Below, in pieces: positions 3,295 to 40,711 of a stretch of DNA of 64,000 bases. How positions within the stretch are numbered: position 1 is the stretch's first letter; every line of letters starts with the position of its first letter. This stretch comes from a virus. A program made the translations under genes and the position numbers. The stretch covers positions 1-64,000 of IMG/VR virus record IMGVR_UViG_3300025652_000047; one strand, given 5' to 3'. Below the pieces are notes generated by a model, which saw only the letters and a program-made list of their open reading frames with translations, did no database searches and was not told the origin of the DNA.

Positions 3295-4707
3295 TTAATA
3301 CCCAGAGTTCTTGTTACTTTTGTACTTATAAACTTTAGGTATTACTACTTTCACATCTGCTTCACATTTACAACAGCAGTCTTCTATTTTAGCTGCTAAT
3401 GGTACAGTTCTCTGCTCAATTAACGCTATTACGTCTTCTACTGTAGTATAAGTAGGAACAATTGCTATTCCAACTGTATCAACTTTAAATCCTCTAGGTG
3501 AATAAATTTCATGATCAATACCATCTGGGAAGCTATCCCCATCACTATCCAATGTAACTCCCCTTGTACTAACTGGAAATCCTTCTATAGTATTAGGTTC
3601 TTCATCTAAGATATTAATAACGCCATCATTATCACTATCTGTAAAATCACAAATAGGTCTCTGTTTAAGATCAGATATATCATTCAAAGTAGAAGATAAA
3701 GGATTTAACCAATATAATGGCTCTGTTCTTTTATTAAAATCTCCCAAATTAAAAGATAATCTGATGTTTGTATAGTGAGCTATATCTGCATTATTAGTTT
3801 GATCAACTGCAGTTCTAAATTTAATACCATCTAAATAATCATTATCCTGTAACATTACTTGATGTTCTATACCTATGTTGAATCTTTTAGAAATTTTTCT
3901 AGATATACCCATTGAAGTAGTTAATACCACATGAAAGTTTATATCGTCCCCAAGTCTAAAGATTCCACTTTTTTTAAAACCTTCAGTTTCATAGTCTCCA
4001 TCATAAATTTCGTTTAAAGCATCTTTAATCTCAGCTCTTCCAGCTTTGGTATTAAACTTATCATTGGTCCATCCAATTGATTGTCTCAAGTTCGTGTATG
4101 GGTTACCATTTTCATCTAATAAATCTAACTTTGCTTGGTGATTGGCAAACCCTGCTCCTATAACCATGTACCAATTCCATGTGTTTCTGTGTTTATGAAA
4201 TAATATATTACCTATATTTAAAACACCTTGAATTGCTCCATATACTTGTCTAGTTTGATATTTTGGAAACCATTCTCCATCAGATAATCCTAATGAAGGG
4301 TTATAACTACTAAAAGTAGGTTCTATTAACCCACCACCTAATGAACTATGTTTAGAAGGTTGAGGATCAAATCCTGATGCTTTTCCATAGAATACATCTG
4401 CTCTAATAGAAAATGCATAATGAATTGATTTCCTCAAATGAAGACCTAATCCATAACCACCTGGAATAGCCATATCGGTATCCCCAGAAATAAAGAAATG
4501 ACCAAAGTGAACCCCAAGTTCCCAAGCATCTTTTGGTTTGGATGGATATATTGCTTCTCCTACTCTCCATTTTGCATTGTTGTCTGGGTCTACAGTCATT
4601 GAATCAGTAATAATGTCAATGGTTTTAATTGTATCACTATCTTGTGAGTAAATATTAGGGACAAATACCCCTAATACTACACACAGTAAATAAAATTGTT
4701 TTCTCAT
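3295..4707 (-). CDS. Host-derived OmpA-family outer-membrane beta-barrel protein with TSP3-like repeats, lacking the OmpA C-terminal domain
   Basis: Signal peptide; P.KPK..WELG.H.G; beta-strand pattern; EPLYWLNPL; DSDNDGV and LDSDGDSFPD Ca-binding repeats; ends in DCCCKC tail instead of OmpA_C. Confidence 0.75.
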   Translation of the reverse strand: MRKQFYLLCVVLGVFVPNIYSQDSDTIKTIDIITDSMTVDPDNNAKWRVGEAIYPSKPKDAWELGVHFGHFFISGDTDMAIPGGYGLGLHLRKSIHYAFSIRADVFYGKASGFDPQPSKHSSLGGGLIEPTFSSYNPSLGLSDGEWFPKYQTRQVYGAIQGVLNIGNILFHKHRNTWNWYMVIGAGFANHQAKLDLLDENGNPYTNLRQSIGWTNDKFNTKAGRAEIKDALNEIYDGDYETEGFKKSGIFRLGDDINFHVVLTTSMGISRKISKRFNIGIEHQVMLQDNDYLDGIKFRTAVDQTNNADIAHYTNIRLSFNLGDFNKRTEPLYWLNPLSSTLNDISDLKQRPICDFTDSDNDGVINILDEEPNTIEGFPVSTRGVTLDSDGDSFPDGIDHEIYSPRGFKVDTVGIAIVPTYTTVEDVIALIEQRTVPLAAKIEDCCCKCEADVKVVIPKVYKYKSNKNSGY

Positions 4708-9662: not shown

Positions 9663-9999
9663 CTTGTTTGTTATACCAGTTAATAAATTCTATTACTAAG
9701 GAATATACCTCTTCTATGATTGTACAGGAGCCAGGAAAGTTACCATATAAAGTTAAATCTTTAGTTACTTCTTGATAAAAAAGACATCTATGACCTGTTA
9801 TACACCAAATTTTCTCTACTACAGGCATTAACCAATTCCAATCTTCATCGAATAGTAGTTCGTCAAAACAGTTGCCGTCTTGTTTATCATAGACCATCTG
9901 TGACATCCTCATCTCATTGTCGTACCATCCAATGTTCTTTTCTTTAGTGAATCCCATAAATTCAGCTATACGTTTATTACTTTCTACTACATTATCCAT
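9655..9999 (-). CDS. Conserved Bacteroidota-phage protein
   Basis: N..IAEFMG ... DWNWLMPVVEKI ... FI.WYN. Confidence 0.65.
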   Translation of the reverse strand: MDNVVESNKRIAEFMGFTKEKNIGWYDNEMRMSQMVYDKQDGNCFDELLFDEDWNWLMPVVEKIWCITGHRCLFYQEVTKDLTLYGNFPGSCTIIEEVYSLVIEFINWYNKQDG

Positions 10000-10942
10000 C
10001 TAGCTGTTCATTTTTAAAAAAGAAAGACTTTGCTTTAGTCCATTCTCTCCAGTTATAATGAGGTCTTCTTTTATCAGAATTAAATAACCAATTCCAATAC
10101 CTACCCCATCTTTTAGCAGTAGTAGGGCATGAATTTAAAGTAGGAGCTGTATTAACTTCTAATACATATGCTTTATCATCCTTGAACATTACATCTACAC
10201 CTCCACAATCAAGCCCTAGAGCCTCTACAGCGTGTACTGATTGCTTTAATACATCTAAGTAAGGTTCTGAATCATTCCATCTTACAACTTCAAATCCAGC
10301 TACATCATCTTCTACATTACCACCTCTATTGGCTGCTATATTCCAAGCTATATTACCATTGTTAGGGTTTTGCTTCTTCATGAGTCTAAGTACTTTACCA
10401 TGCCCTACATGTGTTCTAAATTCTAATTCTTTATCTATGAATCTAGCATAGTAGTACTTTTCAGGATTATAATGTGCATTAAACTCTTGTATACTATTAA
10501 GTATAATAAAGTTTTTACCTTTACTATGTACAAAAGGTCTGCATATAATAGGTAAATGTTTCTTTTTAATGTTATTAGGATTGATACTCTTAGGTACTCT
10601 AACTTCAGACTCATTCATTATAACTCTAGCTAATCCTTTGTCAGTTGCATTCCGTAATCCAGGGATCTTATTATAGACTATAGAACTAGCATTAGTATCT
10701 ATTGGCTCTTGGGAACCCCATCTGAGTACTACATAATCAGAAAAGTCTAGAGTATCGTCTTTTACTTTCTTATAGTTTTCTTTACTTTCTTGACTAAATA
10801 CTCTATAGTATTTTACAAATTTACCATTTCTTTTAGTAAATTGTCTTCTTTGTACTAGATTACCTGTATCACATGATTTAAACGCTTCTTTAGTCGAAGG
10901 TCTTCCATGTTTACCTGTAAGTACTACTTTTACTTTTGTCAT
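9992..10942 (-). CDS. ATP-grasp peptide ligase (RimK/phiEco32-like)
   Basis: P.I.RP..HSKG, EFR.HV, LGLD.GGVD, VLEVNTAP. Confidence 0.9.
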   Translation of the reverse strand: MTKVKVVLTGKHGRPSTKEAFKSCDTGNLVQRRQFTKRNGKFVKYYRVFSQESKENYKKVKDDTLDFSDYVVLRWGSQEPIDTNASSIVYNKIPGLRNATDKGLARVIMNESEVRVPKSINPNNIKKKHLPIICRPFVHSKGKNFIILNSIQEFNAHYNPEKYYYARFIDKELEFRTHVGHGKVLRLMKKQNPNNGNIAWNIAANRGGNVEDDVAGFEVVRWNDSEPYLDVLKQSVHAVEALGLDCGGVDVMFKDDKAYVLEVNTAPTLNSCPTTAKRWGRYWNWLFNSDKRRPHYNWREWTKAKSFFFKNEQLDG

Positions 10943-10949
10943 TTTAATA

Positions 10950-11594
10950 TTATATTAATAAATGATTATTAAAAACCTCTTCTTTAAATATAGGAGGTAA
11001 ATCTAATTCAATGTCTACAGCTATATCTTCTGGATATCCAAATTCTGCTTTTAGTAAATTTCTAAAGCCAGGTCTACCTTTATTATCTTTGTGCAATACA
11101 AGGTTATCCTGGTTTCTACTTTCTATTTTACCTTCTTTAATTATTTTTGGAAACAGCAAGTTTATATCTTCTACATTAGGATATAACTGACTATACTTAC
11201 CTTGTAAAAAATTTAGTTTCATATCTTCATATGGTAATTCTACCACTATCATATGGTAATTTTTATCGTAAGTATAATCAGTTACAAATCCTTTCTTTTG
11301 TTTAATCATAGCTAATCCTGCAGTAAACTTATTAGTGTAATGTTCCTTACTAGCATATTTATTTTTATGGTAAGGTCCAAATACATCTACAAGTATATAA
11401 AAGGTATTATCTAAGATTGATTTCTCATTAAATTCTAAATCTCCAACTCCAGTTGCAAGTATTGTAAACCTATTTAGTATATAAGCGTAAATACTTTTGT
11501 TAGTTAATTGTATACTGGGGTATAGGTATTTAAGACTTTTATTCTGAAATCTCTGTCCTGGTTGAATCTTTATCTGGTTGTTCTTGCTCCACAT
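10950..11594 (-). CDS. Conserved crAss-like hypothetical protein
   Basis: N.S..YL.P ... F..GKYS.LY ... ELD.PP...EE.F. Confidence 0.55.
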   Translation of the reverse strand: MWSKNNQIKIQPGQRFQNKSLKYLYPSIQLTNKSIYAYILNRFTILATGVGDLEFNEKSILDNTFYILVDVFGPYHKNKYASKEHYTNKFTAGLAMIKQKKGFVTDYTYDKNYHMIVVELPYEDMKLNFLQGKYSQLYPNVEDINLLFPKIIKEGKIESRNQDNLVLHKDNKGRPGFRNLLKAEFGYPEDIAVDIELDLPPIFKEEVFNNHLLI

Positions 11595-12042
11595 ACGTTG
11601 TTTTTGCAGTAACTACCTCTTTCATTAAGGCTTTCCAGTCTTTAAATGTCATAGTAATAAGATGTTCTTCTGGCTTATTACCAAATTTATGCATTAAAAG
11701 TCTAGGAGCCTTAAAGATTGTATGGTCGGAAGGAAAATACTCGCTCAATTTCTCGTGCATTTTTCTAAATTCAACATCAGCTTTAGGTCTTTGTTTAAGA
11801 TACCCTGCTTTACATTGAATTAGAAAATCTAAGTTGTCTGTAATTGGTCCATTAGGTGCAATATCTACACAACAATCATCTAGTAATCTACTACATGCTC
11901 TAGTTGTTTTTGCTTTGGTCCAACCCAAATCCTTGAGTACATTCACGATCATTCTTTCATAACCATGTCCTTTTCTTCTACTCTTCTTTGCTCTAGCAGA
12001 TGCTTCTGCTTTACTCTTTAATTTAATGTTTTCCATGTGCAT
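11539..12042 (-). CDS. PD-(D/E)XK nuclease, Holliday junction resolvase-like
   Basis: RKGH.YER ... VDI ... IQCK. Confidence 0.75.
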   Translation of the reverse strand: MHMENIKLKSKAEASARAKKSRRKGHGYERMIVNVLKDLGWTKAKTTRACSRLLDDCCVDIAPNGPITDNLDFLIQCKAGYLKQRPKADVEFRKMHEKLSEYFPSDHTIFKAPRLLMHKFGNKPEEHLITMTFKDWKALMKEVVTAKTTYVEQEQPDKDSTRTEISE

Positions 12043-13424
12043 TGTACTTCTTTATCTTTTAAAAAAATCTCGTAATAAGGAATCTGAGCTGAATAATAAT
12101 TTGCCATCTCAGTTTTTCTATCACATACATATTTCAACAAGTGACTTTGAAGATCTTCGTTATTTAATTCTTGTAAAATATCTTTAAATGTAATTTTAGT
12201 ATTACTTTTTAAGATTTCTAAACTGTTATTTGTAGCAAATTTAATAAAAGCTATATTCAATAACAGCCAATTTGATACTTTACCGTAATTTAAAGTACCT
12301 TCATGATACCTAAATTCAATAGTTCTACTGTCTGTAAAAAAGTAGTTATTCATATTAATTATAGAATATCTATTCGTATAGTGCCATTTTTGATTACCAT
12401 TCTTAGAGTGAGTTCTATTTTCTGGATTACTTCTTTCAGTTGGAGGTACTCCATCATTCCAAAAAGTCCAAATATCAGTAAAAGCTTTATTTAAACTTTC
12501 TTGATTAATAGATCCATCTTCTAATATATAATTTCTACCATAAGCTAAATTTAACTCAGGTAGTAATTTACAGTAATCTTTTGCGTCTCTACCTCTTCTA
12601 GTTAATGCAGATAACATTTTTTTAAATGGAGGAAACATAGCGTTAATTTCATTTTGAAATCTATACATCAATAAGTAGAAAGATACTGCAAACTCTTTTG
12701 TTCTAGGTAAATTTCCAATATGAATATGAGTACTAGTTTTCTCATCTACACTACACTGTCTAGATAAGTAATAACATTGTTCTTTTAGAGAAGATAATTC
12801 TCCACTCATAGGTACTGTTATATACTCATAACCACCTATACTTCCATCTTTTACAGGTACTAGATAAGTATCTTTCATCATATTTGGATGTAATGCACCT
12901 TCACTAGTTTCAAACTCAACTCCGTAAGTATAATCAAATACTTCATTTACTTTTGATAAATGCTTAGACTCTTGTATATACTTAGCCCATGCTATATCAA
13001 ATTGTGCATTGTTATCAGCACCATATAATCTAGTATTAAACTCTCCATAGTTTTCAACTGTTGCAGTTGGACTTGCATGAAAGATATCAGTTCCTGCTCT
13101 ATAGTAGTATTTTGGAAATTCTCTATAATCTTTAATATAAAATCCATCTATAGTTTTTACAGTATACTTATCTTTTCTAAAATACTCAAGTTCTCCATTA
13201 GGTTTTATTAGCCCTTTAACAATAGCATCAGTTAATCTACAATAAAGTTGCCTTTTCTTATTATAGTAACAATCAGTACTTTTATACCAGTATAAAGATC
13301 CTACTTTATAAGCTTCTCCACTATCTAATTTATTTCTCTTACCTTTAATGTACCACTCATTATCTATGAGGGTACATTTGTCTTTTAAAGTTTCATATCC
13401 ACTCTTCGTAATTACTGTTAGCAT
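12018..13424 (-). CDS. Amidoligase (COOH-NH2 ligase, Amidoligase_2 type)
   Basis: YGVEFET, DGSI.GYEY.T, STHIHIG, TIEFR.HEGT. Confidence 0.88.
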   Translation of the reverse strand: MLTVITKSGYETLKDKCTLIDNEWYIKGKRNKLDSGEAYKVGSLYWYKSTDCYYNKKRQLYCRLTDAIVKGLIKPNGELEYFRKDKYTVKTIDGFYIKDYREFPKYYYRAGTDIFHASPTATVENYGEFNTRLYGADNNAQFDIAWAKYIQESKHLSKVNEVFDYTYGVEFETSEGALHPNMMKDTYLVPVKDGSIGGYEYITVPMSGELSSLKEQCYYLSRQCSVDEKTSTHIHIGNLPRTKEFAVSFYLLMYRFQNEINAMFPPFKKMLSALTRRGRDAKDYCKLLPELNLAYGRNYILEDGSINQESLNKAFTDIWTFWNDGVPPTERSNPENRTHSKNGNQKWHYTNRYSIINMNNYFFTDSRTIEFRYHEGTLNYGKVSNWLLLNIAFIKFATNNSLEILKSNTKITFKDILQELNNEDLQSHLLKYVCDRKTEMANYYSAQIPYYEIFLKDKEVQCTWKTLN

Positions 13425-14694
13425 ATTCTTTATATTTTTCTAATGTTTCAAATATTACAGTCCCTTCTGGGTCTAAATCTTCTTTGTCAAATTCAAATAG
13501 TATAGAATCCATAGTTTTATGTAATTCTTCTATTTGGTCCATAAAATCTTGTGGCGAATAATATGCCATTTTTATGAATTGTCCTTGATCAAAATGGTAA
13601 TAAGTTTCTGATCCTATAGGTTGTATTATGCCATCAGCAAGTTCATCTTGATTAAAAAAGTAAGCATTTACATCTGCATTGTAGTATAACATATGGTGAG
13701 AAATATCCTTACTAAGTTGATCGTACTCTTTATCTATTAATCCTATATTTAAAGCAGTAGTTTCTAACGGATTTTCAGAAGGTTTATTGATAATATCAAC
13801 TAAAATTCCATTTATAAATTTCAATTTACTTTGAAAGTTATTCTCATGCATACTTACAATACTACCATCTTTAAGAAAGTTACCAACTCCAGTGTATAGC
13901 TTATTATCTTTATAATATGCTCCTCCACAGTATAGTACTTTACTACTACTTTTATTTAAAGAATCTAAAGTAGAAAAAGAAAGATTGTAAGGTAAAGCTA
14001 ATGCTTGTCGTTGTACTTTTGCTAATTCTACAAGTGGATAATTTCTATCTATAGGAGTTTCTTTTGTAACAGCAGCTTTATCATTCATTGTTATTAAAGA
14101 ATTACATAAAAAATGACTAACTACATTACCCTCAGCTATAACTTCTAAATCTCTTTCTAAAGTAGAAAAATACATAGTAGTACCTATATAACAAAAATGT
14201 AAAGGTCTTTCTACTTCTCCACCACTTTTACCAATCCAAAAAGTTGTAGAAGTTTTGTGCCTATATACAAAAGTTGCTCCACCAGTATAATATTGTAGAA
14301 ATTCAGTATTACCTTCTTTCATTAACTTTAATAGGTAACTAGTATCATTACTTCCAAGGTCACCAGATATACCAGTAATTTCTTCTAAAGCAAATTGGTT
14401 TTTAATAGTACCATTTAATACAAATACATGGTCACCATCTACTAGAGGCTGTGCATTTTTAACAGTATTAGCACCACTAGACCCTTTTCTAGTATGTCCT
14501 AATACAAACTTATTAGCTTTCTTAGGATACTCAGATTCTAAAGTAAGAGAATAAAAATCTCCAAGAGATTTTGTACATTTTTTATTAGTATAAATACCAG
14601 CAGAGTCTCCACCTCTTTCGTTATTTAATACACCAAGTATTTTAATCTTATTTAAATCTATGTTTGAGCCTATAGCTCCAAAAATTCCACACAT
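13393..14694 (-). CDS. Class II (Ntn) glutamine amidotransferase
   Basis: N-terminal MCGIFG, ERG.DSAG, GHTRK.S.G, NG.I.N, NDT. Confidence 0.9.
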   Translation of the reverse strand: MCGIFGAIGSNIDLNKIKILGVLNNERGGDSAGIYTNKKCTKSLGDFYSLTLESEYPKKANKFVLGHTRKGSSGANTVKNAQPLVDGDHVFVLNGTIKNQFALEEITGISGDLGSNDTSYLLKLMKEGNTEFLQYYTGGATFVYRHKTSTTFWIGKSGGEVERPLHFCYIGTTMYFSTLERDLEVIAEGNVVSHFLCNSLITMNDKAAVTKETPIDRNYPLVELAKVQRQALALPYNLSFSTLDSLNKSSSKVLYCGGAYYKDNKLYTGVGNFLKDGSIVSMHENNFQSKLKFINGILVDIINKPSENPLETTALNIGLIDKEYDQLSKDISHHMLYYNADVNAYFFNQDELADGIIQPIGSETYYHFDQGQFIKMAYYSPQDFMDQIEELHKTMDSILFEFDKEDLDPEGTVIFETLEKYKEYANSNYEEWI

Positions 14695-15050
14695 TATAAA
14701 TTTTGTTTTTTAGTTATAAAATCAACCCAATCTCCATTTTTAATTAGATTATTTGGATTGGTAAATCCCATATATGGATACAATTTACCTTGTACTCCAT
14801 CTATAGTAATATCTACTTCTGCATATCCTGCTCCTATTTCCATTCTATGGATCCCTTCGTAGTCTTCTTGGCTTACTTCTATTAAGTCAACTACTAAGCT
14901 TCTACTACCTTGTAAAATGCCTGGGTAAGATCCTAAAGAATATAAATCATAACCATGTACAACATGGCTACTTATGTGATTTAAAGATTTAATATGGTTT
15001 GCATTATACATCCCTGGTCTTAAGCTTCCGTATACAAATATGTTTTGCAT
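14694..15050 (-). CDS. Gamma-glutamylcyclotransferase (AIG2-like)
   Basis: IFVYGSLRPG..N, LG.YPG, ME...GY, I..GDW. Confidence 0.9.
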   Translation of the reverse strand: MQNIFVYGSLRPGMYNANHIKSLNHISSHVVHGYDLYSLGSYPGILQGSRSLVVDLIEVSQEDYEGIHRMEIGAGYAEVDITIDGVQGKLYPYMGFTNPNNLIKNGDWVDFITKKQNL

Positions 15051-15877
15051 GATTCTTCTTTTAAATAATTAATATTATTTTCGTCACAATATAGTCTAGC
15101 TGCTTCTACATCATAGTTGTTAATGATATCTTCTATAGGAGAGTATTCATTTATATCTTCCCTAATATACATAACATCTTTATTTAAGTCTTCACCTAAT
15201 TCAAGTTGTTGTATACAAGTTTCTATACCTTCCCATACCCATTCAATTAACTTAGCACTAGATAAGAAATAAGCTCCTAAAGATCTACATTCAATACCGT
15301 AATCTTTAAATCTTATTTCTCCTGCTCTGCCGTATAATTCTCTACGACCTCTTTCTGGATCTAATAAAATAGAAGGTAAGGTAATGTATTTATCAAACAA
15401 CTTAGCTAATCTTTCTTGTGTACCTATGTCTGTATTTTCATCTTTATCAGCAATACTTTCATGTCCAAAGTGAATATGAAATCCTGCAGATCTTAAATTA
15501 GGGTTTGTAGATTGTACAGGTGTACTCATACCTCGTTTGTATACATTCATACTGCTTTCACACCCAAATAAGGTAGCTTCAGCAGTATTTAACTCTTCAT
15601 CTGGGTATATTAACATTGAATTAAAACTATACTCATACTCAGGTATCATTTCAGCTACAGTAGTTAATCCATATTCAATATAACTAATGAATTCTTCAAA
15701 ATTATTTACTGGAGGTTGTGTAATTTCAACATTTACATTGTCTTCTTGTCTTGCACATCCATTACCAATACTTAAAGGCTCATCTTTAGTGCCTCCTATT
15801 TTACCTACTATAGATACAGGTATACCATTTTTTGCTATAGGAATTTCATAATCAGTCCCAATTTTCCAATCTTTCAT
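15020..15877 (-). CDS. phiEco32-like COOH-NH2 ligase type 2
   Basis: IG.D.E, GGTK..P, QEDNV..E, FGC, RSAG.HIH.G, RRELYG.AG..R...YG.E.R.L. Confidence 0.9.
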   Translation of the reverse strand: MKDWKIGTDYEIPIAKNGIPVSIVGKIGGTKDEPLSIGNGCARQEDNVNVEITQPPVNNFEEFISYIEYGLTTVAEMIPEYEYSFNSMLIYPDEELNTAEATLFGCESSMNVYKRGMSTPVQSTNPNLRSAGFHIHFGHESIADKDENTDIGTQERLAKLFDKYITLPSILLDPERGRRELYGRAGEIRFKDYGIECRSLGAYFLSSAKLIEWVWEGIETCIQQLELGEDLNKDVMYIREDINEYSPIEDIINNYDVEAARLYCDENNINYLKEESCKTYLYTEA

Positions 15878-16556
15878 CTAATGTTGTTTTTATTAAATAA
15901 TCAAATAATTTTGTATTTTCTAACTCTTCCATATGACCTTGGAATCCAAATATATTCTTACCTTTTACTCTGAATAATTCTAAATTGCTTTGCTCTTTTG
16001 AATATGCAATAGGACTAATCTCACTAGGTAAGGTTTTTAAATTTACAGTCTGATGGTGTAATGAATTAACTCCTGAAGTATATCCAGGAATAAATTGTAA
16101 ATAATTATACTTTTGGGTTAACTTTAAGTTCTCAACTATTTTACCTCTGTTCCCTTTGTTATTGTGTTGAGTAAAAAAAGAACCCTGAGTACTAGATGGA
16201 AGTTCTACATGTTGATTTAATGTGCCTCCATAATGTACATATAAGTCTTGAAATCCACGGCAAACTCCTATTATTGGAATATTAGCCTCAATATAATCTG
16301 GAAGAATATATTGTGAGAAATAATCATATTCTACATTAGGTGCTCCACTACCAATTCTATATTCTCCATATCTAAGAGGATTAATATCTGCACCCCCAGT
16401 AAGAACTATTGCATCTAAACTTTTATTAACTCCTTCATATGGAGCTATTGATTGTAAAGATCCAAACTTACTAAAGTATGTAAGATATGCTTGATTAACT
16501 TCGTAAGCTCCTTTATTAGTTTTATTTGGATATAGTATTCCTATTTTGTAATGCAT
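15852..16556 (-). CDS. Peptidase C26 / class I glutamine amidotransferase (PuuD-like)
   Basis: LTGGADI.P..YG, GVCRG.Q, VNSLHHQ, QGH.E. Confidence 0.88.
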   Translation of the reverse strand: MHYKIGILYPNKTNKGAYEVNQAYLTYFSKFGSLQSIAPYEGVNKSLDAIVLTGGADINPLRYGEYRIGSGAPNVEYDYFSQYILPDYIEANIPIIGVCRGFQDLYVHYGGTLNQHVELPSSTQGSFFTQHNNKGNRGKIVENLKLTQKYNYLQFIPGYTSGVNSLHHQTVNLKTLPSEISPIAYSKEQSNLELFRVKGKNIFGFQGHMEELENTKLFDYLIKTTLDERLENWD

Positions 16557-22948: not shown

Positions 22949-23584
22949 TTAAAGGTCGTTGTTTAATAATTTGTGAGAATATGCAGTTACTATACTCTTG
23001 AATCTTTCTGGTGCTCCTTCATGTTCAGGATGCCCTTGCACTGCTAACATATGAGTTTCTGGATAGTATACTATTTCTGGTTCAATTTCTGGCTTTTCAA
23101 ATCCATGAGGTAGTCCTTCGTATACTTTAGTTAACTCAGATGCAAAAGCTAATATCTTGTACTGATGTTTCTTTAAGTTAAAAGGATACATCATTTGATG
23201 GTGAGTACTAGTTACATCATAAGTTTCTTTAAAATGAGTATCTGTTACAGGATGGATATAAGATTGTCCTCTTACATTTTGAATTAACTTACCACCTGAA
23301 TATACTGTAGCAAGCTGTGCTCCTCTACAAATACCTAATATAGGTAACTGTAAAACTATAGCTTTAGCTATTTCTTCACATTCATTGATATCTCTAGTAG
23401 GGTTATAACTAGTAGTTGGGTGTTTAGTTTCATTATATAGTGCTGGCATTACATCTGCTCCACCTGTTAATATAACTATATCTGCTTTTTCTAAAGTATC
23501 TACTACAATTGAATTTTGGATTGCATTTTTATATGTAGACTCTCCACCTATAATATATACATTAATATTGTTATTTTTACTCAT
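22949..23584 (-). CDS. Second peptidase C26 / class I GATase
   Basis: LTGGADV.P.LY, GICRGAQ, STHHQMM, QGHPE. Confidence 0.88.
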   Translation of the reverse strand: MSKNNNINVYIIGGESTYKNAIQNSIVVDTLEKADIVILTGGADVMPALYNETKHPTTSYNPTRDINECEEIAKAIVLQLPILGICRGAQLATVYSGGKLIQNVRGQSYIHPVTDTHFKETYDVTSTHHQMMYPFNLKKHQYKILAFASELTKVYEGLPHGFEKPEIEPEIVYYPETHMLAVQGHPEHEGAPERFKSIVTAYSHKLLNNDL

Positions 23585-29694: not shown

Positions 29695-29915
29695 AATTCG
29701 CCCAACAGTAATACTGCTGTCCTCGTGTCAATAGAGTTAGAGCTAAAGTTTATCCAGTATCTTATGGTTACTTGCTTCGCCACCTACTAATTGAAAAGGT
29801 ATCTATACCTAGTAAGATTTTCTTGTTACAGGAACTTACTATTAACTCAGGTCTACTACACTACATAGCTTATGTTCGTGCGACACCACACTATCATAGG
29901 AGCTATCCTATGCAT
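29695..29915 (-). ncRNA. Candidate structured ncRNA
   Basis: ~290-nt intergenic region, GC-richer than its flanks; minus-strand GTGTC/GACAC, GAGTTA/TAACTC, CATAGGA/TCCTATG pairings. Confidence 0.4.
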
Positions 29916-29959
29916 TTATCTTCTGTAGAATGATCAAAAAACTCTTGTTGCTCTAAAGA

Positions 29960-30331
29960 TTAAGTTTCTAACTCTTGTATCTCTATCATTGCTTCTACCA
30001 TTGCGTCCTCATCTGCCTTCAATGGTTCAAGTATAGAATCAATATCTAACTCTACTTCTCCATACTGATCCATTAATCTATGCTTACGCATAAACTGAAC
30101 AGCACTGGTATAGCTATTAAAATCAATAATTTCTATTCCATTGTTGAAATATATAACAGGATGCCAATAATCAGTATTAATTTCATATGTAACCTGAGCA
30201 TTAAACCATATAGACTCTTTAACTTTACATAGTAAAGAATATAAAGCAGGAATTACACCATTGCCAGGTTCTAAACCTAGTTTAATACATAATTCATCAT
30301 TGTTGATAATATTGTTAATTATAGTTTGCAT
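29960..30331 (-). CDS. Hypothetical protein
   Basis: ORF track. Confidence 0.6.
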   Translation of the reverse strand: MQTIINNIINNDELCIKLGLEPGNGVIPALYSLLCKVKESIWFNAQVTYEINTDYWHPVIYFNNGIEIIDFNSYTSAVQFMRKHRLMDQYGEVELDIDSILEPLKADEDAMVEAMIEIQELET

Positions 30332-30358
30332 TGTTATTTATTTAATGATTAAAAAAAA

Positions 30359-30505
30359 TATACTCCTGTGGACTTGAACCACAATTAATAATAACTTCAG
30401 GATGTTCCCTGCATTTTATATTATACCATTGAACCTCTCAGTAAAGAGTCAGTTCTGGACTTATGACTTTGTTATTATTAACCTCGCACGTAAAGAGAGA
30501 GTATA
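30359..30505 (-). ncRNA. tRNA-shaped RNA with the anticodon loop replaced by a 75-nt domain
   Basis: Acceptor TATACTC/GAGTATA; T-arm TGTGG-TTCAAGT-CCACA; 11-bp stem TTAATAATAAC/GTTATTATTAA. Confidence 0.6.
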
Positions 30506-30659
30506 CACTTGAACACTCTTGGAAACATTGTTTGTGTTAGCACCATCATAATAGCTGAATCCTAGTCATTGAACAAGCCTATTGCACTATTATAATGGTC
30601 ACGTAGATACATTAAAATTACAGGTCTTAAACAGGGTTTATGTAATGTTATTCCCTATG

Positions 30660-31250
30660 CGTCTGCACCTTTATCTACTTGCTGTAAACTCCTAAGTGTG
30701 TAAACTAATCAGCTCACTATTTATATTCTATCAACATATTACAATACAGTTGATACACTTGAATGATTTATATACTAGATATGAGAATCTAAGCGATATT
30801 ATTTTCAAACTCATTTTTAATTATGTTTCTAACAAACACACTCAAGTAATTTATATTCACTCTTCATTTAATTGCTTATGAAGGGTTTAAGTCTTCAATT
30901 GAGTCAATTAGGTGGTAGGTTTCACCTGCTAATTCATAAAATAGGTCACGACCTTCGTCTGTCTACCTAGTCTACATGTTAATGCAGCTTACTTGAAAGC
31001 TTATACATTGGCGCATCAATAGGGACTTTCAGCCTATTAGATTAACTCCATTTATGCTTTGGATTCATGGATTCCCATGTATTATCTCCAATGTATAAGT
31101 AATAATACACTCAATGTCTTATGCAATTACCAGTCAATACTACTAGAGTACTGAATTTCTGCAACCTGCATAAGACGTAGATAAAGGTACACAAGCTGAT
31201 CAGTGCTTACCCAACTCCGTTTTCCTCCCAATATCTACAGGAGTGTGTAT
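30660..31250 (-). ncRNA. Large (~600 nt) pseudoknotted ncRNA candidate
   Basis: Perfect 10-12 bp helices 30667-78/31177-88, 31000-11/31088-99, 31116-25/31167-76; also 30705-14/31194-203 and 30688-93/31239-44; mismatches resolve as G-U on the minus strand; no credible ORF. Confidence 0.65.
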
Positions 31251-31363
31251 AATACTATAACCAAACCTCATGGTTACTACGCATACTTAATTTTAGATGT
31301 GGTATATATTTTGTTGTATGTTCCACTTTTCCAATGTTGGTAGGTTATAGTATATTAAATTTG

Positions 31364-31413
31364 TAAGTGCTGAAGGACTCGAACCTCTATCTGCTACCTA
31401 ACTAGCGCACTTA
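31364..31413 (-). ncRNA. 50-nt mini-tRNA mimic (acceptor + D-like + T arm, no anticodon arm)
   Basis: TAAGTGC/GCACTTA stem, GCTA-GTTAGG-TAGC hairpin, AGG-TTCGAGT-CCT T-loop. Confidence 0.55.
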
Positions 31414-31661
31414 TGAACAACTACTTAAAATCGTAGCTGTTCGCTGAATCTTGAGTCATTAAGACCCCATATATACTTACGAACATAGTATAGTATTTAG
31501 TAGTTAATGTTATGACCCTCTATAGATCAAGATTTCAATGCCTTTTAGCTTAGTCTAAGTATTAATACCTACATAGAATGTAAGCATAATACTCCACTAG
31601 CTAATACTGGTGAGGCTTATTACAACCTCATGGTTTATTGCCATTTGCAATTTACATGTGT

Positions 31662-31725
31662 AGAATTTTGCTATTCCATAGCAAAATTTGAGGGTGAACC
31701 CTACCCGTTTAAGGGTAGAGTTCTA
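31662..31725 (-). terminator. Tandem hairpins downstream of the 105-aa early gene
   Basis: AATTTTGCTAT/ATAGCAAAATT and GAAC.CTACCC/GGGTAG.GTTC inverted repeats. Confidence 0.55.
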
Positions 31726-31729
31726 GCCA

Positions 31730-32047
31730 CTAGAAGTTAGTGACGCTGTCCTCCCAGACCACGTGGTGGTTGGTGTACGAAGTCCCTTGGACGACTTCCA
31801 TTTCGCCAGTAGTCTGGTTCGGAACTTTTTTAGGTTGCGCTACCACAACTTTAGTGCGAAGCTCGAACTTGTCACCGTTAGGCACTAGTCTTTTGGCGAA
31901 AGACTCAGCGTTAAAGCTGATTCGAGTCCTAGTCTCGTTAATCCACTGAGACTGATAGCCGTTAGGCTTACCTGTTTCACGGTCAAGCTCAGGCTTAGTG
32001 CCAAATGAAGTAATGTCTAATTTTGCTTTGATTTCAGAAAGTGTCAT
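31730..32047 (-). CDS. Hypothetical protein, first gene of the leftward unit, with atypically high GC
   Basis: 105-aa ORF with visibly more C/G than its neighbours; A-rich leader; followed by hairpins. Confidence 0.7.
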   Translation of the reverse strand: MTLSEIKAKLDITSFGTKPELDRETGKPNGYQSQWINETRTRISFNAESFAKRLVPNGDKFELRTKVVVAQPKKVPNQTTGEMEVVQGTSYTNHHVVWEDSVTNF

Positions 32048-32149
32048 AGTTGTTGTATTTAGTAATTTGTAAATGCAATATGACCTCAGGGGTCATCCTC
32101 GCTAGTAATTAGCAATGGGCTATTGTTTGTTATACATGAACCCAAGTTT

Positions 32150-32420
32150 CCCTAGCGATTTGGTTTTTTTTAAAAATTTTTTTTTTTTTCTTATCCATCC
32201 AAGGGGGTTACTATAGGGATTGGATGGATGGATGGGGGGGGTTTGGTTTATACTATATGTCGCTGGAAAACACGTAAAAAACAGCGGAGGGTATATTTTA
32301 GGCGACTATTTCGGCTATTTTTCTAATTTACAAATAATTAAATTTAGATTTCCATTAATTTATTCTCATATAATAAGCTATACCCTAGGTGGTTATTGAC
32401 TTTACGGTTAATTAATTTTT
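32150..32420. other. Strand-switch region, candidate replication origin
   Basis: Divergence point of the two gene blocks; long T tracts; ATCCATCCAA/TTGGATGGAT inverted repeat (32193-32229); G runs. Confidence 0.45.
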
Positions 32421-32442
32421 TTTAAAAATAATTGCTTAAAAA

Positions 32443-32474
32443 CTTGCATATGTCAAATGTTTGTTTTATATTTA
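32443..32474 (+). promoter_or_regulatory. Bacteroidota-type promoter for the rightward unit
   Basis: CTTG-N20-TATATTTA, close to the TTTG/TAnnTTTG consensus. Confidence 0.6.
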
Positions 32475-32477
32475 CAT

Positions 32478-32790
32478 CTGTTATATTAGTTCAACTACTA
32501 ATTACATCTTGGTTAATAGCATCTATCCTTATAGAAAGCACAAGATCAGAAGTTGGGTTGTAGGCTATGCTCTTGAGATAATAGAGGAACATAATGGCTA
32601 AGATGTCCCCAATAATAACAAAAATTGCCTGTATATAATACTTAGGGAGGAATAATACTAAGGGTTGATATAGAAGTACCTCTGTGGGTGTAGGATTAAG
32701 TTCTAACGTACAGTAAGTGGAAATTACAGGTTAATATCGGATTTAAGAAATTAGATCTCAAAAAAGATAAAAATTTTTAGGGGGATTCTT
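32478..32790 (+). ncRNA. Candidate structured leader/ncRNA (~300 nt)
   Basis: ACATCTTGGTTA(32504)/TGGCTAAGATGT(32595) helix with G-U pairs on +; crossing TTGGG/CCCAA and TGTAGGC/GCCTGTA pairings; several hairpins. Confidence 0.55.
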
Positions 32791-37218: not shown

Positions 37219-37290
37219 GGCTTAGTAGCTCAACTGGAAGAGCCCTACCTTTTAAGTAGGAAGATATAGGTTCGACTCCTATCTAAGCCA
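37219..37290 (+). tRNA. tRNA-Lys (TTT)
   Basis: GGCTTAG/CTAAGCC acceptor, TAGCTCAACTGGAAGAGC D-arm, CCTAC-CTTTTAA-GTAGG, ATAGG-TTCGACT-CCTAT; CCA not encoded. Confidence 0.92.
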
Positions 37291-37315
37291 CAATAATATA
37301 ACGTATGAAAAACGT

Positions 37316-40300
37316 ATGAAAGAATATAAACATTGGAATTGTGGGCAGCCTGACTGGATAAAGATAGATAATATAAAAGAATTTAATCTAGATGAGGTAA
37401 AGATATTCCACCCACAAGATCCTAGATATGTAGAGTATTGGAAGCAAGAGAAGAAGTACTGTATAGAAGGCAGGTGGGAAAGACAATTTGGAGGATGGAT
37501 GCATATGCCAGGTTGTTTATATTTCTATGGTAAGTTTGGTATAATTGTAGATACAGACAAGTTTACAAAAGTAACTGAAAAAATTAAACCCCTAATCCAG
37601 GACTTAGAGTTTGAACAAGCTTTTATGTTTTGGGAAGCTAGGGGTTTTTCTGGGTATATAGATGACGATGAATATACCTCAGATAACATGTGGTTCAAAT
37701 TCAATGAGAAAGGATTACCTACCACAGAAGAGATAGAGAAAATGGGAGATTCCCAAAGAACTGCAGTTCTTAACCTTATAAATAATAATGGTAATTTAAA
37801 GGAATATCTAACACCAAGAAAGAATTTAAGAAGAATTGCAGAGAAGCCTTTAGGTAGACCTTTGTTTCAAAATGATGCAAAGAATAAAGATACTATGGGT
37901 TGTCATGCTAAAGATAGTAAATTTAGAATGTATGATGGTTCTGTTAAAGAAGTATTTGATATAAAAATTGGGGATGCTTTAATGGGTCCCGATAGTTCTC
38001 CAAGAGAAGTTAATGAAATATTAACTGGAGAGAATGTTATGGTTAAAATTACTCCTAAATATGGAGACGCTTTTAAAATAACTCCAAATCATATTCTTAG
38101 AGTTAGGGAAACTAATAAACATACAAATGAAAAATTAGAATATGATTTACCTGTTTGGGAATATTTAAACAAATCAGATTCTAAAAAATCATTTATAGAA
38201 ATAATAGATAGAAATAAAATTGAATATCCTGAAGTACCTTTAGTTTTAGACCCTTACTTTATAGGACTATGGTTAGGAGATGGGTTTAAAAGAGAGAAAT
38301 TAATATGTATTAATCAAGGTAAAGATAAAGAAATTTTAAATTGGTTATTAGAATATTGTAACTCTAAAGATAATTTGTCATATACTACTTCCGTATCTAA
38401 AAACGGTTTATCAAATGGTTTTACAACTAGATTTAGATTAACAGATTCTAATTTATCAGGTAAAGGAAATTATTGGGCTAAAACTTTTAGAAATAACAAA
38501 CACATACCTAATGAGTATCTTATTAATAGTTTAGATAATAGATTAAAATTATTAGCAGGGTATATTGATTCTGATGGATGTTACGAAAAAAAATCAAATA
38601 GATATACAATTACGTCTGTAGATTTAGATTTATTAACCCAAACGCAAGAGTTAGCAAGATCCTGTGGATTTAGAGCAGAGATAAATAAACCTAGTAAAAC
38701 TGGTATTACTGATTCTTTAAAATATAACTTAAGAATTATAGGAGATATTAATTCTATTCCAGTGAAATTAAGTTATAAAAAAGCAACAGGAATTAGAGAA
38801 AAATTCCATAGAAATACATTTACAACTCAAGTATTACCTCCTGAAAAGTTCTATGGAGTAGAAGTTGATAAAGATCATTTGTATATGCTTGCTGATGGTA
38901 ACAAAGATCACAACAGTAGGGGTGGAGGTAAGAGTTTCTTTGAAGCTGTTGCAGTCCAACTATATACTTTAACTTTTGATGGGGCTACAGAGTATATTAT
39001 AGATCAAGTACAAAAGGTTGAGACTTGTATAGGTTCAGGAGATACTGATAAGTCAGGAGAACTTGTACAGAAAGTAGTAGATGCAATGAATGAGTTTGCT
39101 ATTAACCCTAAGCTAGGAGCATGGGGACAACAGGGAGACTCTGACTGGACTCCTAATCCTTTTTATAGGGATATGAATGGACCAACTAACGCAGGTAACA
39201 AGCAAAAAGGAGGTTGGGTACATAAGTACGAGAAGAAGATTAATGGTAGATGGGTAGATGGATTTGGAACAGGAACAAGAATGTTTCATGTATCTTACTC
39301 TTCAAATAAGAAAGCAGGAGCAGAAGCAGGAGCTGGAGGTAGATATAATGTATCTACAGTAGAGGAAAAAGGTTTAACTATATTACTTATAATGTTGTGG
39401 AACTCAAATAGAGCCACAGTAATGAGAAATGGAGTTCAATTTGGAGTACAATCTTTCTTAGGAACATCTGGTAATGCAGAACTAGTATTACCTTCAAAAG
39501 AGATGTTTACTACTCCTCATGAATTTAACCTAGTAGCTTATCCTGATGTATGGGAAGGCACTGGAGATCTAGGATTCTTTATACCTGCGTATATGACGTA
39601 TAGGCAATTTAAAGATGTAAATGGAAATACAGATGTTAAAGCAGCGAGAGAGCATTGGTTAAAAGGGTATTTAGCAGCAGGAGAATCTGCAAACCCTAAG
39701 ACTCTTAGGATGTACTGTATGAATTATCCTGATATACCATCTCATATGTGGGTAACAGATGCTCAGTATCTTTTACCTTATGAAGAAGCTATAGATAGAG
39801 AGAGGCATTTAATGGATAAGAAGTTATACCAAACCATAGGTACTGCTATAGATTTAAGATGGGATACTTCAAAACAGAATGGAGTTACTTATGATATAGT
39901 ACATAATCCACAGCCTTTCTATGATTTTCCAATTAGGAAGGATATGGAAAGGATGGATGGAGAAATAATGATGTATCAGACTCCACAAGAGATTAGAGGA
40001 GTTGTACCTAATGATATGTATTTCTTTGTACATGATCCATATGTATCAGATAACCAAGAAGACGGGGCTTCATTAGGGGTAACCTATGGATTTTTAAATC
40101 CTAAATATTCAGTAACACATGATGGAAGTCAATTAGTATGTTCATATATAGGAAAGCCAAAAGGAGGAAAAAAAGCATATTATCAAAATTTAGAGAAGTT
40201 ATTAGCTTTCTACGGCAATCCCTTTAGGGGACTAGCATATGAAGCAAACAGAGGAGAGTACTGTAGGTCTTATTTCGAGAAGAAAGGGAAACTACATTTA

Positions 40301-40711
40301 CTAGCTTTAAGACCACAGCATGCAAAGGGAGATGGCATATACGAAAAAAATGTTACTCAATTTGGATATATGGTTGGAGCTAGAGGAGCAATAGGTAAAT
40401 TAACTATGGTAGATGATACTAATGATTTTTTATTATCAGATGTAGTTAGGAGTAATGGTACAAATAAATTAATTGAGACTATACCTTGTATATTTTTAAT
40501 TAGACAAATAGCACAGTTTACATTGAATGGTAACTTTGATGCAGTATCATCTTTAATTTTAGTACCTACATTTATTTCAGAACAAGAGTCCTATATGACT
40601 CAAATTAGAAAACAAAAAGAAACAAACAGATTACAGTTTTTATCAACAAATAGCGCAATACATGACAAGAATAATAGACACAAAGGAAAAGGTATTAACA
40701 GGCTTATCTAA
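37316..40711 (+). CDS. Terminase large subunit (crAss-like), intein-containing
   Basis: YW..E...CIEG...MPG.LYFY, RGGGKS Walker A, EE.G Walker B, GTSG, HDPY nuclease, YEANRG, GNFD.VS. Confidence 0.9.
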   Translation: MKEYKHWNCGQPDWIKIDNIKEFNLDEVKIFHPQDPRYVEYWKQEKKYCIEGRWERQFGGWMHMPGCLYFYGKFGIIVDTDKFTKVTEKIKPLIQDLEFEQAFMFWEARGFSGYIDDDEYTSDNMWFKFNEKGLPTTEEIEKMGDSQRTAVLNLINNNGNLKEYLTPRKNLRRIAEKPLGRPLFQNDAKNKDTMGCHAKDSKFRMYDGSVKEVFDIKIGDALMGPDSSPREVNEILTGENVMVKITPKYGDAFKITPNHILRVRETNKHTNEKLEYDLPVWEYLNKSDSKKSFIEIIDRNKIEYPEVPLVLDPYFIGLWLGDGFKREKLICINQGKDKEILNWLLEYCNSKDNLSYTTSVSKNGLSNGFTTRFRLTDSNLSGKGNYWAKTFRNNKHIPNEYLINSLDNRLKLLAGYIDSDGCYEKKSNRYTITSVDLDLLTQTQELARSCGFRAEINKPSKTGITDSLKYNLRIIGDINSIPVKLSYKKATGIREKFHRNTFTTQVLPPEKFYGVEVDKDHLYMLADGNKDHNSRGGGKSFFEAVAVQLYTLTFDGATEYIIDQVQKVETCIGSGDTDKSGELVQKVVDAMNEFAINPKLGAWGQQGDSDWTPNPFYRDMNGPTNAGNKQKGGWVHKYEKKINGRWVDGFGTGTRMFHVSYSSNKKAGAEAGAGGRYNVSTVEEKGLTILLIMLWNSNRATVMRNGVQFGVQSFLGTSGNAELVLPSKEMFTTPHEFNLVAYPDVWEGTGDLGFFIPAYMTYRQFKDVNGNTDVKAAREHWLKGYLAAGESANPKTLRMYCMNYPDIPSHMWVTDAQYLLPYEEAIDRERHLMDKKLYQTIGTAIDLRWDTSKQNGVTYDIVHNPQPFYDFPIRKDMERMDGEIMMYQTPQEIRGVVPNDMYFFVHDPYVSDNQEDGASLGVTYGFLNPKYSVTHDGSQLVCSYIGKPKGGKKAYYQNLEKLLAFYGNPFRGLAYEANRGEYCRSYFEKKGKLHLLALRPQHAKGDGIYEKNVTQFGYMVGARGAIGKLTMVDDTNDFLLSDVVRSNGTNKLIETIPCIFLIRQIAQFTLNGNFDAVSSLILVPTFISEQESYMTQIRKQKETNRLQFLSTNSAIHDKNNRHKGKGINRLI
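37901..38914 (+). mobile_element. Intein (338 aa) with LAGLIDADG homing endonuclease
   Basis: MG|CHAKDS...TPNHIL...FIGLWLGDG...LLAGYIDSDG...FYG.EVD.DH.Y.L.DG..DHN|S. Confidence 0.93.

Follow-up and report, generated by a model that had tools for sequence, protein, structure and literature searches.

The DNA analysed here (the window) is the first 64 kb of an IMG/VR virus record of 78.9 kb. The TerL, portal and major head protein of the window match crAss-type PHROG families, and its DNA polymerase has 24-26% identity to the polymerases of crAss-like phages. Judged from these sequences, the source is an uncultured, divergent crAss-like phage, a member of a group that ranks with the most abundant known viruses. 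The genes and the tract discussed below are situated as follows.

283-32047, minus strand: genes of the replication/early arm, including those for a DNA polymerase and a ribonucleotide reductase and a helicase-like gene
31730-32047, minus strand: first gene of the replication/early arm
30332-31729, minus strand: ORF-free, helix-rich tract of 1,398 nt, between the first arm gene and the next gene
29960-30331, minus strand: next gene past the tract
from 32789, plus strand: genes of the other arm, including those for terminase, portal and capsid

The tract contains the region 30660-31250, which an initial annotation had flagged as a single large, pseudoknotted non-coding RNA. Outside this 1.4-kb tract the genome is densely coded. 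The tract is co-oriented with its arm, and 0.3-1.7 kb separate it from the strand switch and from the point where cumulative GC skew is lowest; the DNA polymerase gene lies ~5 kb downstream of the tract, and the G+C content of the tract is not below that of its neighbours. An identical first arm gene is known in seven contigs. The initial annotation had seen no credible ORF in the flagged region, and the minus strand of the whole tract indeed holds none of at least 50 aa under table 11, table 4 (TGA=W), TAG=Q or TAA=Q, the longest being 34 aa with a TTG start. A recoded protein gene was considered as well and rejected, there being no long frame with TAG read as Q, TGA as W or TAA as Q.

Five helices had been listed in the flagged region, and every one of them is present.

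30667-30678 with 31177-31188: perfect part of helix H1, 12 bp, Watson-Crick
31000-31011 with 31088-31099: helix P1, 12 bp, perfect Watson-Crick
31116-31125 with 31167-31176: 10 bp, perfect Watson-Crick
30705-30714 with 31194-31203: crossing helix, 10 bp, with one A-C mismatch on the plus strand that becomes G-U on the minus strand
30688-30693 with 31239-31244: crossing helix, 6 bp

Perfect helices are more frequent here than in dinucleotide shuffles: the 591 nt contain three of at least 10 bp (mean 0.28 in shuffles, p about 0.002) and two of at least 12 bp (0.02 in shuffles), and the 1.4-kb tract contains five of at least 11 bp (0.45 in shuffles), the most in the window. When the 64 kb is scanned with a sliding 591-nt window (635 positions), no position but this one contains two perfect inverted repeats of at least 12 bp. 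The whole 64 kb has 15 perfect inverted repeats of 12-15 bp with arms at most 600 nt apart, several of which are in coding DNA; 13515-13529/14097-14111, 14227-14240/14752-14765 and 2102-2115/2458-2471 are examples. These 15 repeats exceed an extrapolation from the shuffles (about 0.13 per 1.4 kb), a comparison of quantities that do not correspond exactly. With G-U pairs included, helices of at least 12 bp number 3 versus 1.66 in shuffles (p 0.25), which is not above chance. Because the helix counts with G-U pairs stay within chance, the crossing helices carry no statistical weight, and the pseudoknot that the initial annotation had built on them is unsupported. The fold of 611 nt has a z-score of -3.75 on the minus strand and -2.95 on the plus strand, a thermodynamic signal that is modest against the genome background (mean z -1.5, sd 1.9, for 300-nt windows). 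A reading of H1 as the terminal inverted repeats of a MITE-like element was rejected, as it is single-copy and without target duplication, and imperfect pairing extends past its arms.

One part of the region is conserved. A covariance model (R1) describes a four-way-junction RNA (the core), the parts of which are given here from the closing stem through hairpins A, B and C.

30998-31099, minus strand: conserved four-way-junction RNA (core), ~100 nt
31088-31099 with 31000-31011, minus strand: closing stem P1, 12 bp
31086 with 31013, minus strand: extra G-C pair
after the extra G-C pair, minus strand: junction strand of 6 nt
31066-31079, minus strand: hairpin A, 5 bp with a tetraloop
31047-31063, minus strand: hairpin B, 4 bp with a 9-nt loop that includes invariant AGCAUAA
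between hairpins B and C, minus strand: A-rich linker
31017-31039, minus strand: hairpin C, 7 bp with a variable loop
after hairpin C, minus strand: last junction strand, AUGCG

R1 defines the family by the 12-bp closing stem, the three hairpins and the invariant strands AGAUAAUA, AGCAUAA and AUGCGCC. It scores the window at 113 bits (E 1.5e-24) and the relatives at 100-116 bits, and the core folds with a z-score of -3.2. The junction strands and the loop of hairpin B are invariant across the four distinct sequences; a pairing is conceivable between the GCAU of this loop and the AUGC in the strand after hairpin C, two stretches in which the sequences do not vary.

The initial annotation had proposed covariation in homologues as a check, and in the core it is present. 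The alignment comprises 29 pairs, and all 113 of its 113 pair cells are standard, compared with 27-46% paired in slid alignment controls. Compensatory change on both sides is seen at five pairs in three helices; with just four distinct core sequences to compare, of which three are closely similar, few events underlie this covariation. At four pair positions a total of six cells hold G-U or U-G on the minus strand; these become A-C on the opposite strand, where 107 of the 113 cells are standard. The core RNA is therefore on the minus strand of the window, and the earlier statement that wobble pairs fix this strand holds for the conserved core. As judged from the alignment and the database searches, the core is a conserved RNA of a new, previously uncatalogued family.

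The four distinct core sequences are those of the window, of L002/L003/L137, of L124/L133 and of L196. A DNA polymerase search of IMG/VR yielded two contigs only, L002 and L003 (77% protein identity), which are identical to each other in the compared region. Across the whole 1.4-kb tract, the window and L002/L003 match over only 92 nt (31004-31095, 76% identity); their first arm genes have 31% protein identity, and the subsequent early genes are unrelated. The third variant was obtained by a pattern scan from two metagenome contigs, L124 and L133, and the fourth, L196, by a pattern scan of IMG/VR. L196 is crAss-like by its TerL (phrog_6681) and has no tblastx similarity to the window or to the 22-kb L002 locus. 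In total, the junction-based patterns found L124, L133 and L137 together with 18 chance matches in metagenomes, and L196 followed by 8 further chance matches in IMG/VR.

In every lineage for which upstream DNA is available, the core is situated early in this arm, past the first gene. A 60-aa ORF sits between the first gene and the core in L124, and L002 and L124 differ in where the core stands relative to small ORFs; its presence does not depend on which genes adjoin it. It stands nearly alone in L002 and L124, in the former right after a terminator hairpin and a strictly conserved 24-nt box, whereas in L196 it is embedded in at least 530 nt of ORF-poor, strong folds (z -5.8) that have no sequence likeness to the window outside the core. 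In L002, L124 and L196, five or six U come after the closing stem; the window has no U-run there. A GC-rich, terminator-like hairpin followed by the 24-nt box (AAGCTTGACCTGA..ATGTCGCAAA) occurs at 3629-3690 and 4071-4106 of L002, 470-525 of L124 and 9967-10027 of L196. The box is 97% shared between phages with otherwise unrelated genes, which suggests an early promoter signal; at up to three mismatches it is absent from the window.

The core is present in one copy per phage genome by R1 search, the whole genomes of the relatives included, and these genomes have neither an extra copy nor any other conserved piece. R1 finds no further match in the 64 kb, in 41 bacterial candidate loci or in the 8 further viral candidates. 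The 41 stretches had come from a junction-pattern scan of bacterial genomes; none is a core copy and all are chance matches. Neither the tract nor the core nor the L196 module has a match in GenBank phages, and a 14-mer scan gave, among the matches listed, chance matches only, besides the known relative L050. With the flanking small proteins as queries, no relatives were found in IMG/VR, and the protein database returned the query alone. The unit of ~600 nt that the initial annotation had proposed is accordingly reduced to a conserved unit of ~100 nt: the remaining ~490 nt have no counterpart in the three related lineages, and half of them fold like background.

When the 1.4 kb is folded by partition function, it resolves into successive modules, each closed locally, and pair probabilities are 0.93-1.0. 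Their order along the transcript is 31500-31725, 31364-31413, 31252-31353, the H1 domain, 30542-30599 and 30358-30504, with the following features apart from the core.

31500-31725, minus strand: very stable hairpin array, directly after the first arm gene
31664-31688, minus strand: hairpin with an 11-bp perfect stem and a 3-nt GGA loop
31364-31413, minus strand: tRNA-like fold of 50 nt that lacks an anticodon arm; its acceptor-like stem has 7 bp, its D-like hairpin carries GG in the loop, and its T-arm-like hairpin has the loop UUCGAGU
31252-31353, minus strand: stem-closed module of 102 nt with an 11-bp perfect stem (pair probability 0.97, z -2.5)
31177-31191, minus strand: 5' arm of H1, 12 perfect bp, or 15 bp with one U-G
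31116-31176, minus strand: long bipartite hairpin directly 5' of the core, with stems of 11 bp and 8 bp
30700-30997, minus strand: 3' half of the H1 domain, ~300 nt with weak local hairpins only
30664-30678, minus strand: 3' arm of H1, closing a domain of 528 nt (31191-30664)
30542-30599, minus strand: hairpin of 14 bp
30358-30504, minus strand: tRNA-shaped module at the 3' end of the tract, with an acceptor-like stem, a 12-bp stem enclosing 75 nt, a T-arm (UUCAAGU loop) and then a U-run

H1 has a pair probability of 0.99 in the fold of the whole 1.4 kb and is not present in the relatives. The hairpin at 31116-31176 (z -5.1, none of 200 shuffles as good, pair probability 0.96-0.98) is not conserved in the relatives either. 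The 3' half of the H1 domain has no similarity in the relatives, and its folding (z -1.0 for 30700-30849 and -1.6 for 30850-30997) equals the genome background, against -2.5 to -5.1 for the modules. The 300-nt window 31501-31800 has a z-score of -11.6, extreme among the 143 windows scored (1-42900), and 31355-31740 reaches -116.9 kcal/mol on the minus strand (z -5.5) compared with -96.2 kcal/mol on the plus strand (z -3.6). The tRNA-like fold at 31364-31413 has helix probabilities of 0.93-0.97 and a fold z-score of only -1.4; the MFE fold of 30358-30504 is a cloverleaf (z -2.5), which appears terminator-like in a consensus scan. A motif, AATGACT(2-3 nt)GATTCAGC, occurs twice on the minus strand (31443-31459 and 30554-30569), its copies ending ~30 nt upstream of the fold at 31364-31413 and ~50 nt upstream of that at 30358-30504, and in exact form it is found nowhere else in the 64 kb.

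The initial annotation could assign the RNA to no known family, and a scan of the whole window with Rfam 15 at gathering thresholds agrees, with tRNA-Lys as the sole match. Permissive scans of 29800-32300 and of the core alone (128 nt) gave chance miRNA lines only, and the relatives gave no Rfam match. GOLLD and ROOL, with which the RNA had been compared, have no covariance-model match at E up to 10, nor have OLE, HEARO, RNase P and group I/II introns. The initial annotation had also noted that such large RNAs sit near tRNAs, which is not the case here. The only tRNA gene found by ARAGORN and Rfam, tRNA-Lys (UUU) at 37219-37291, is 6 kb off in the other arm, and neither program recognises a tRNA in the two tRNA-like folds at the borders of the tract; RF00005 gave no line at E up to 10 for 30345-30515 or 31350-31425. 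These folds are assigned by eye and have no significant model score. A hidden tRNA or tmRNA was rejected, since ARAGORN gave noise at low threshold and 37219-37291 only at default. The sole Rfam line for 31350-31425 is mascRNA-menRNA (10.6 bits versus a gathering threshold of 42.5, E 7.8), which is non-significant. The fold at 31364-31413 resembles mascRNA (MALAT1 3' end, RF01684) in its acceptor-like stem, D-like hairpin, T-arm and much reduced anticodon region, and in bordering a long non-coding RNA. However, the alignment is non-significant, the z-score is only -1.4 and the fold lies outside the flagged coordinates. No tmRNA was found in the window by ARAGORN or RF00023; the same tools detect the tmRNA of the phage phi14:2, so this search has power.

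The closest known parallel, by position only, is offered by the early non-coding RNAs of phi14:2, a crAss-like phage of Cellulophaga. Two of its long intergenic regions, at the g004-g005 and g005-g006 junctions at the head of the early arm, give RNA above the level of most genes that persists late and whose function is unknown (bioRxiv, 10.1101/2020.03.07.982082). In each of these two crAss-like phages the early/replication arm carries at its head a tract free of ORFs (1.4 kb in the window, 1.7 kb in the phi14:2 record), which shares the orientation of the arm and precedes the DNA polymerase by ~5 kb. In contrast to the window, where none is detectable, part of the phi14:2 tract is a tmRNA gene. 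This gene lies in the second region (NC_021806, L205:4031-4500), between the removed g005 and g006; ARAGORN gives it the tag GSSVQKLAMVA*, and RF00023 scores it at 46 bits (gathering 47, E 1.4e-16). In phi14:2, R1 scores no higher than 12 bits (E 0.29), and a blastn comparison gave nothing meaningful. The lack of homology to the phi14:2 tract and the tmRNA within it imply that the parallel is one of position and kind, not of family.

A real structured non-coding RNA of ~100 nt is present on the minus strand; the proposed 600-nt 'ornate' fold around it is lineage-specific. We consider it somewhat probable that the tract is a string of independently folding RNA modules, one of which is conserved, and not a demonstrated giant of the GOLLD/ROOL class. 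The tract would be transcribed early with its arm and would yield a stable RNA, in which the lineage-specific, 15-bp H1 would enclose the core, the strong neighbouring hairpin and the ~300 nt of weakly folded RNA. Within it the core, a 12-bp closing stem that carries three hairpins, would display its invariant junction strands and 9-nt loop, and these unpaired nucleotides would form a tertiary core or a contact site. The bordering tRNA-like folds would serve as processing or end-protecting signals. The core may work in trans by offering a host or phage protein a folded surface to bind, with a part in taking over the host or in countering its defences. This trans, protein-binding step is put forward tentatively, its chance being a little below even; it is argued from the mobility of the core relative to ORFs, its occurrence in phages with unrelated neighbours, its invariant unpaired nucleotides and the precedent of phi14:2. 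Against the proposal as a whole, Pfam detected no Ro60, RtcB, SmpB or reverse transcriptase and indicated no partner protein in the 20 replication-arm ORFs scanned (828-23584). The U-run that three of the four sequences have after the closing stem would also suit a terminator or an attenuator, and since H1 is statistically unusual, a larger single fold keeps a share of the probability.

That larger fold, one ornate RNA of about 530-850 nt that is closed by H1, knotted by the crossing helices, includes the core as a domain and is akin to GOLLD/ROOL, appears rather unlikely. As with GOLLD and ROOL, the candidate is a large, ORF-free, helix-rich RNA in a phage genome with tRNA-like elements nearby, and these elements border a tract that lies amid tightly packed genes. 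H1 pairs with high probability, the perfect helices exceed shuffles, and the region is unique in the genome for its two helices of at least 12 bp. However, the GOLLD and ROOL units are 500-800 nt long, whereas the conserved unit here is ~100 nt, with no true tRNA gene adjacent and no Rfam match to these or other large RNAs. Outside the core nothing is conserved in three related lineages, 30700-30997 folds at background, the crossing helices are at chance level once G-U is allowed, and coding DNA of this genome likewise holds perfect 12-15 bp repeats spaced about as far apart. An elaborated form, in which the 528-nt H1 domain and the bordering tRNA-like folds make up a large ornate phage RNA of a new class that is cut by host RNase P/Z at the tRNA-like punctuation and assembles into a particle or scaffold like GOLLD/ROOL, with the four-way junction as its functional heart, would be improbable.

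The core could instead be a cis control element (an attenuator, a terminator or a riboswitch-like sensor), in which the closing stem and the U-run stop or pass transcription into the downstream early genes. Its situation ~12 nt (L002) and ~50 nt (L196) behind the 24-nt box would suit this role, as would the five or six U after the closing stem in L002, L124 and L196 and the invariant junction nucleotides, which are reminiscent of ligand-binding aptamers. Since the window has neither a U-run after the stem nor the box, the core shifts relative to ORFs between L002 and L124, no alternative anti-terminator pairing is seen and no riboswitch family matches, we regard a cis element as unlikely. It is very unlikely that the tract beyond the core is spacer DNA that is neutral or in decay, such as what is left of tRNA-type genes, with its other helices due to chance or left over. 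The lack of conservation beyond the core, the failure of the tRNA-like pieces in tRNA models, the background level of the weak middle segment and the extension of the genome-wide excess of perfect inverted repeats into coding DNA would all be explained in this way. However, phage genomes rarely retain as much as 1.4 kb of DNA that has no use, genes are densely packed elsewhere in this genome, several modules have z-scores of -2.5 to -11.6 with a clear advantage of the minus strand, and the tract is the richest part of the window in perfect helices of at least 11 bp. Finally, a DNA-level element (a replication origin, hairpin promoters or a recombination site), to which the nearby strand switch and GC skew minimum and the many inverted repeats might point, including the 11-bp hairpin at 31664-31688 whose GGA loop may resemble that of the hairpin promoters of coliphage N4, is scarcely credible, as in the covarying helices the wobble pairs suit just one of the two strands, iterons and other families of direct repeats are absent and the G+C of the tract is not lower than that of its neighbours.

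If the tract is, as we favour, a string of modules, the long stretches without genes that head the early arms of crAss-like phages may each be a mosaic of RNA modules open to exchange and not a single giant fold. In phi14:2, a cultured crAss-like phage, the early non-coding RNAs are very abundant and their role is unknown. Because the core is compact, covarying, single-copy and common to phages with unrelated neighbours, it offers a tractable handle on this question; at ~100 nt it is small enough to be synthesised, probed and used as bait for a partner.

Further features of the window lie outside the tract. The divergent intergenic region between the arms (32410-32790) has 85% DNA identity to 2645-3013 of L002 and no long ORF; it is far more conserved than the flanking genes and may contain promoters, an origin or another RNA. 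The TerL ORF (37316-40711) encodes 1,131 aa, and its PHROG matches are split between residues 211-490 and 612-1113, which suggests an insertion (an intein or an extra domain). In the replication arm, 9992-16556 and 22949-23584 contain amidoligase, ATP-grasp, COOH-NH2 ligase, glutamine amidotransferase and peptidase C26 genes, and this amidoligase/ATP-grasp cluster may be a peptide- or metabolite-modifying set.
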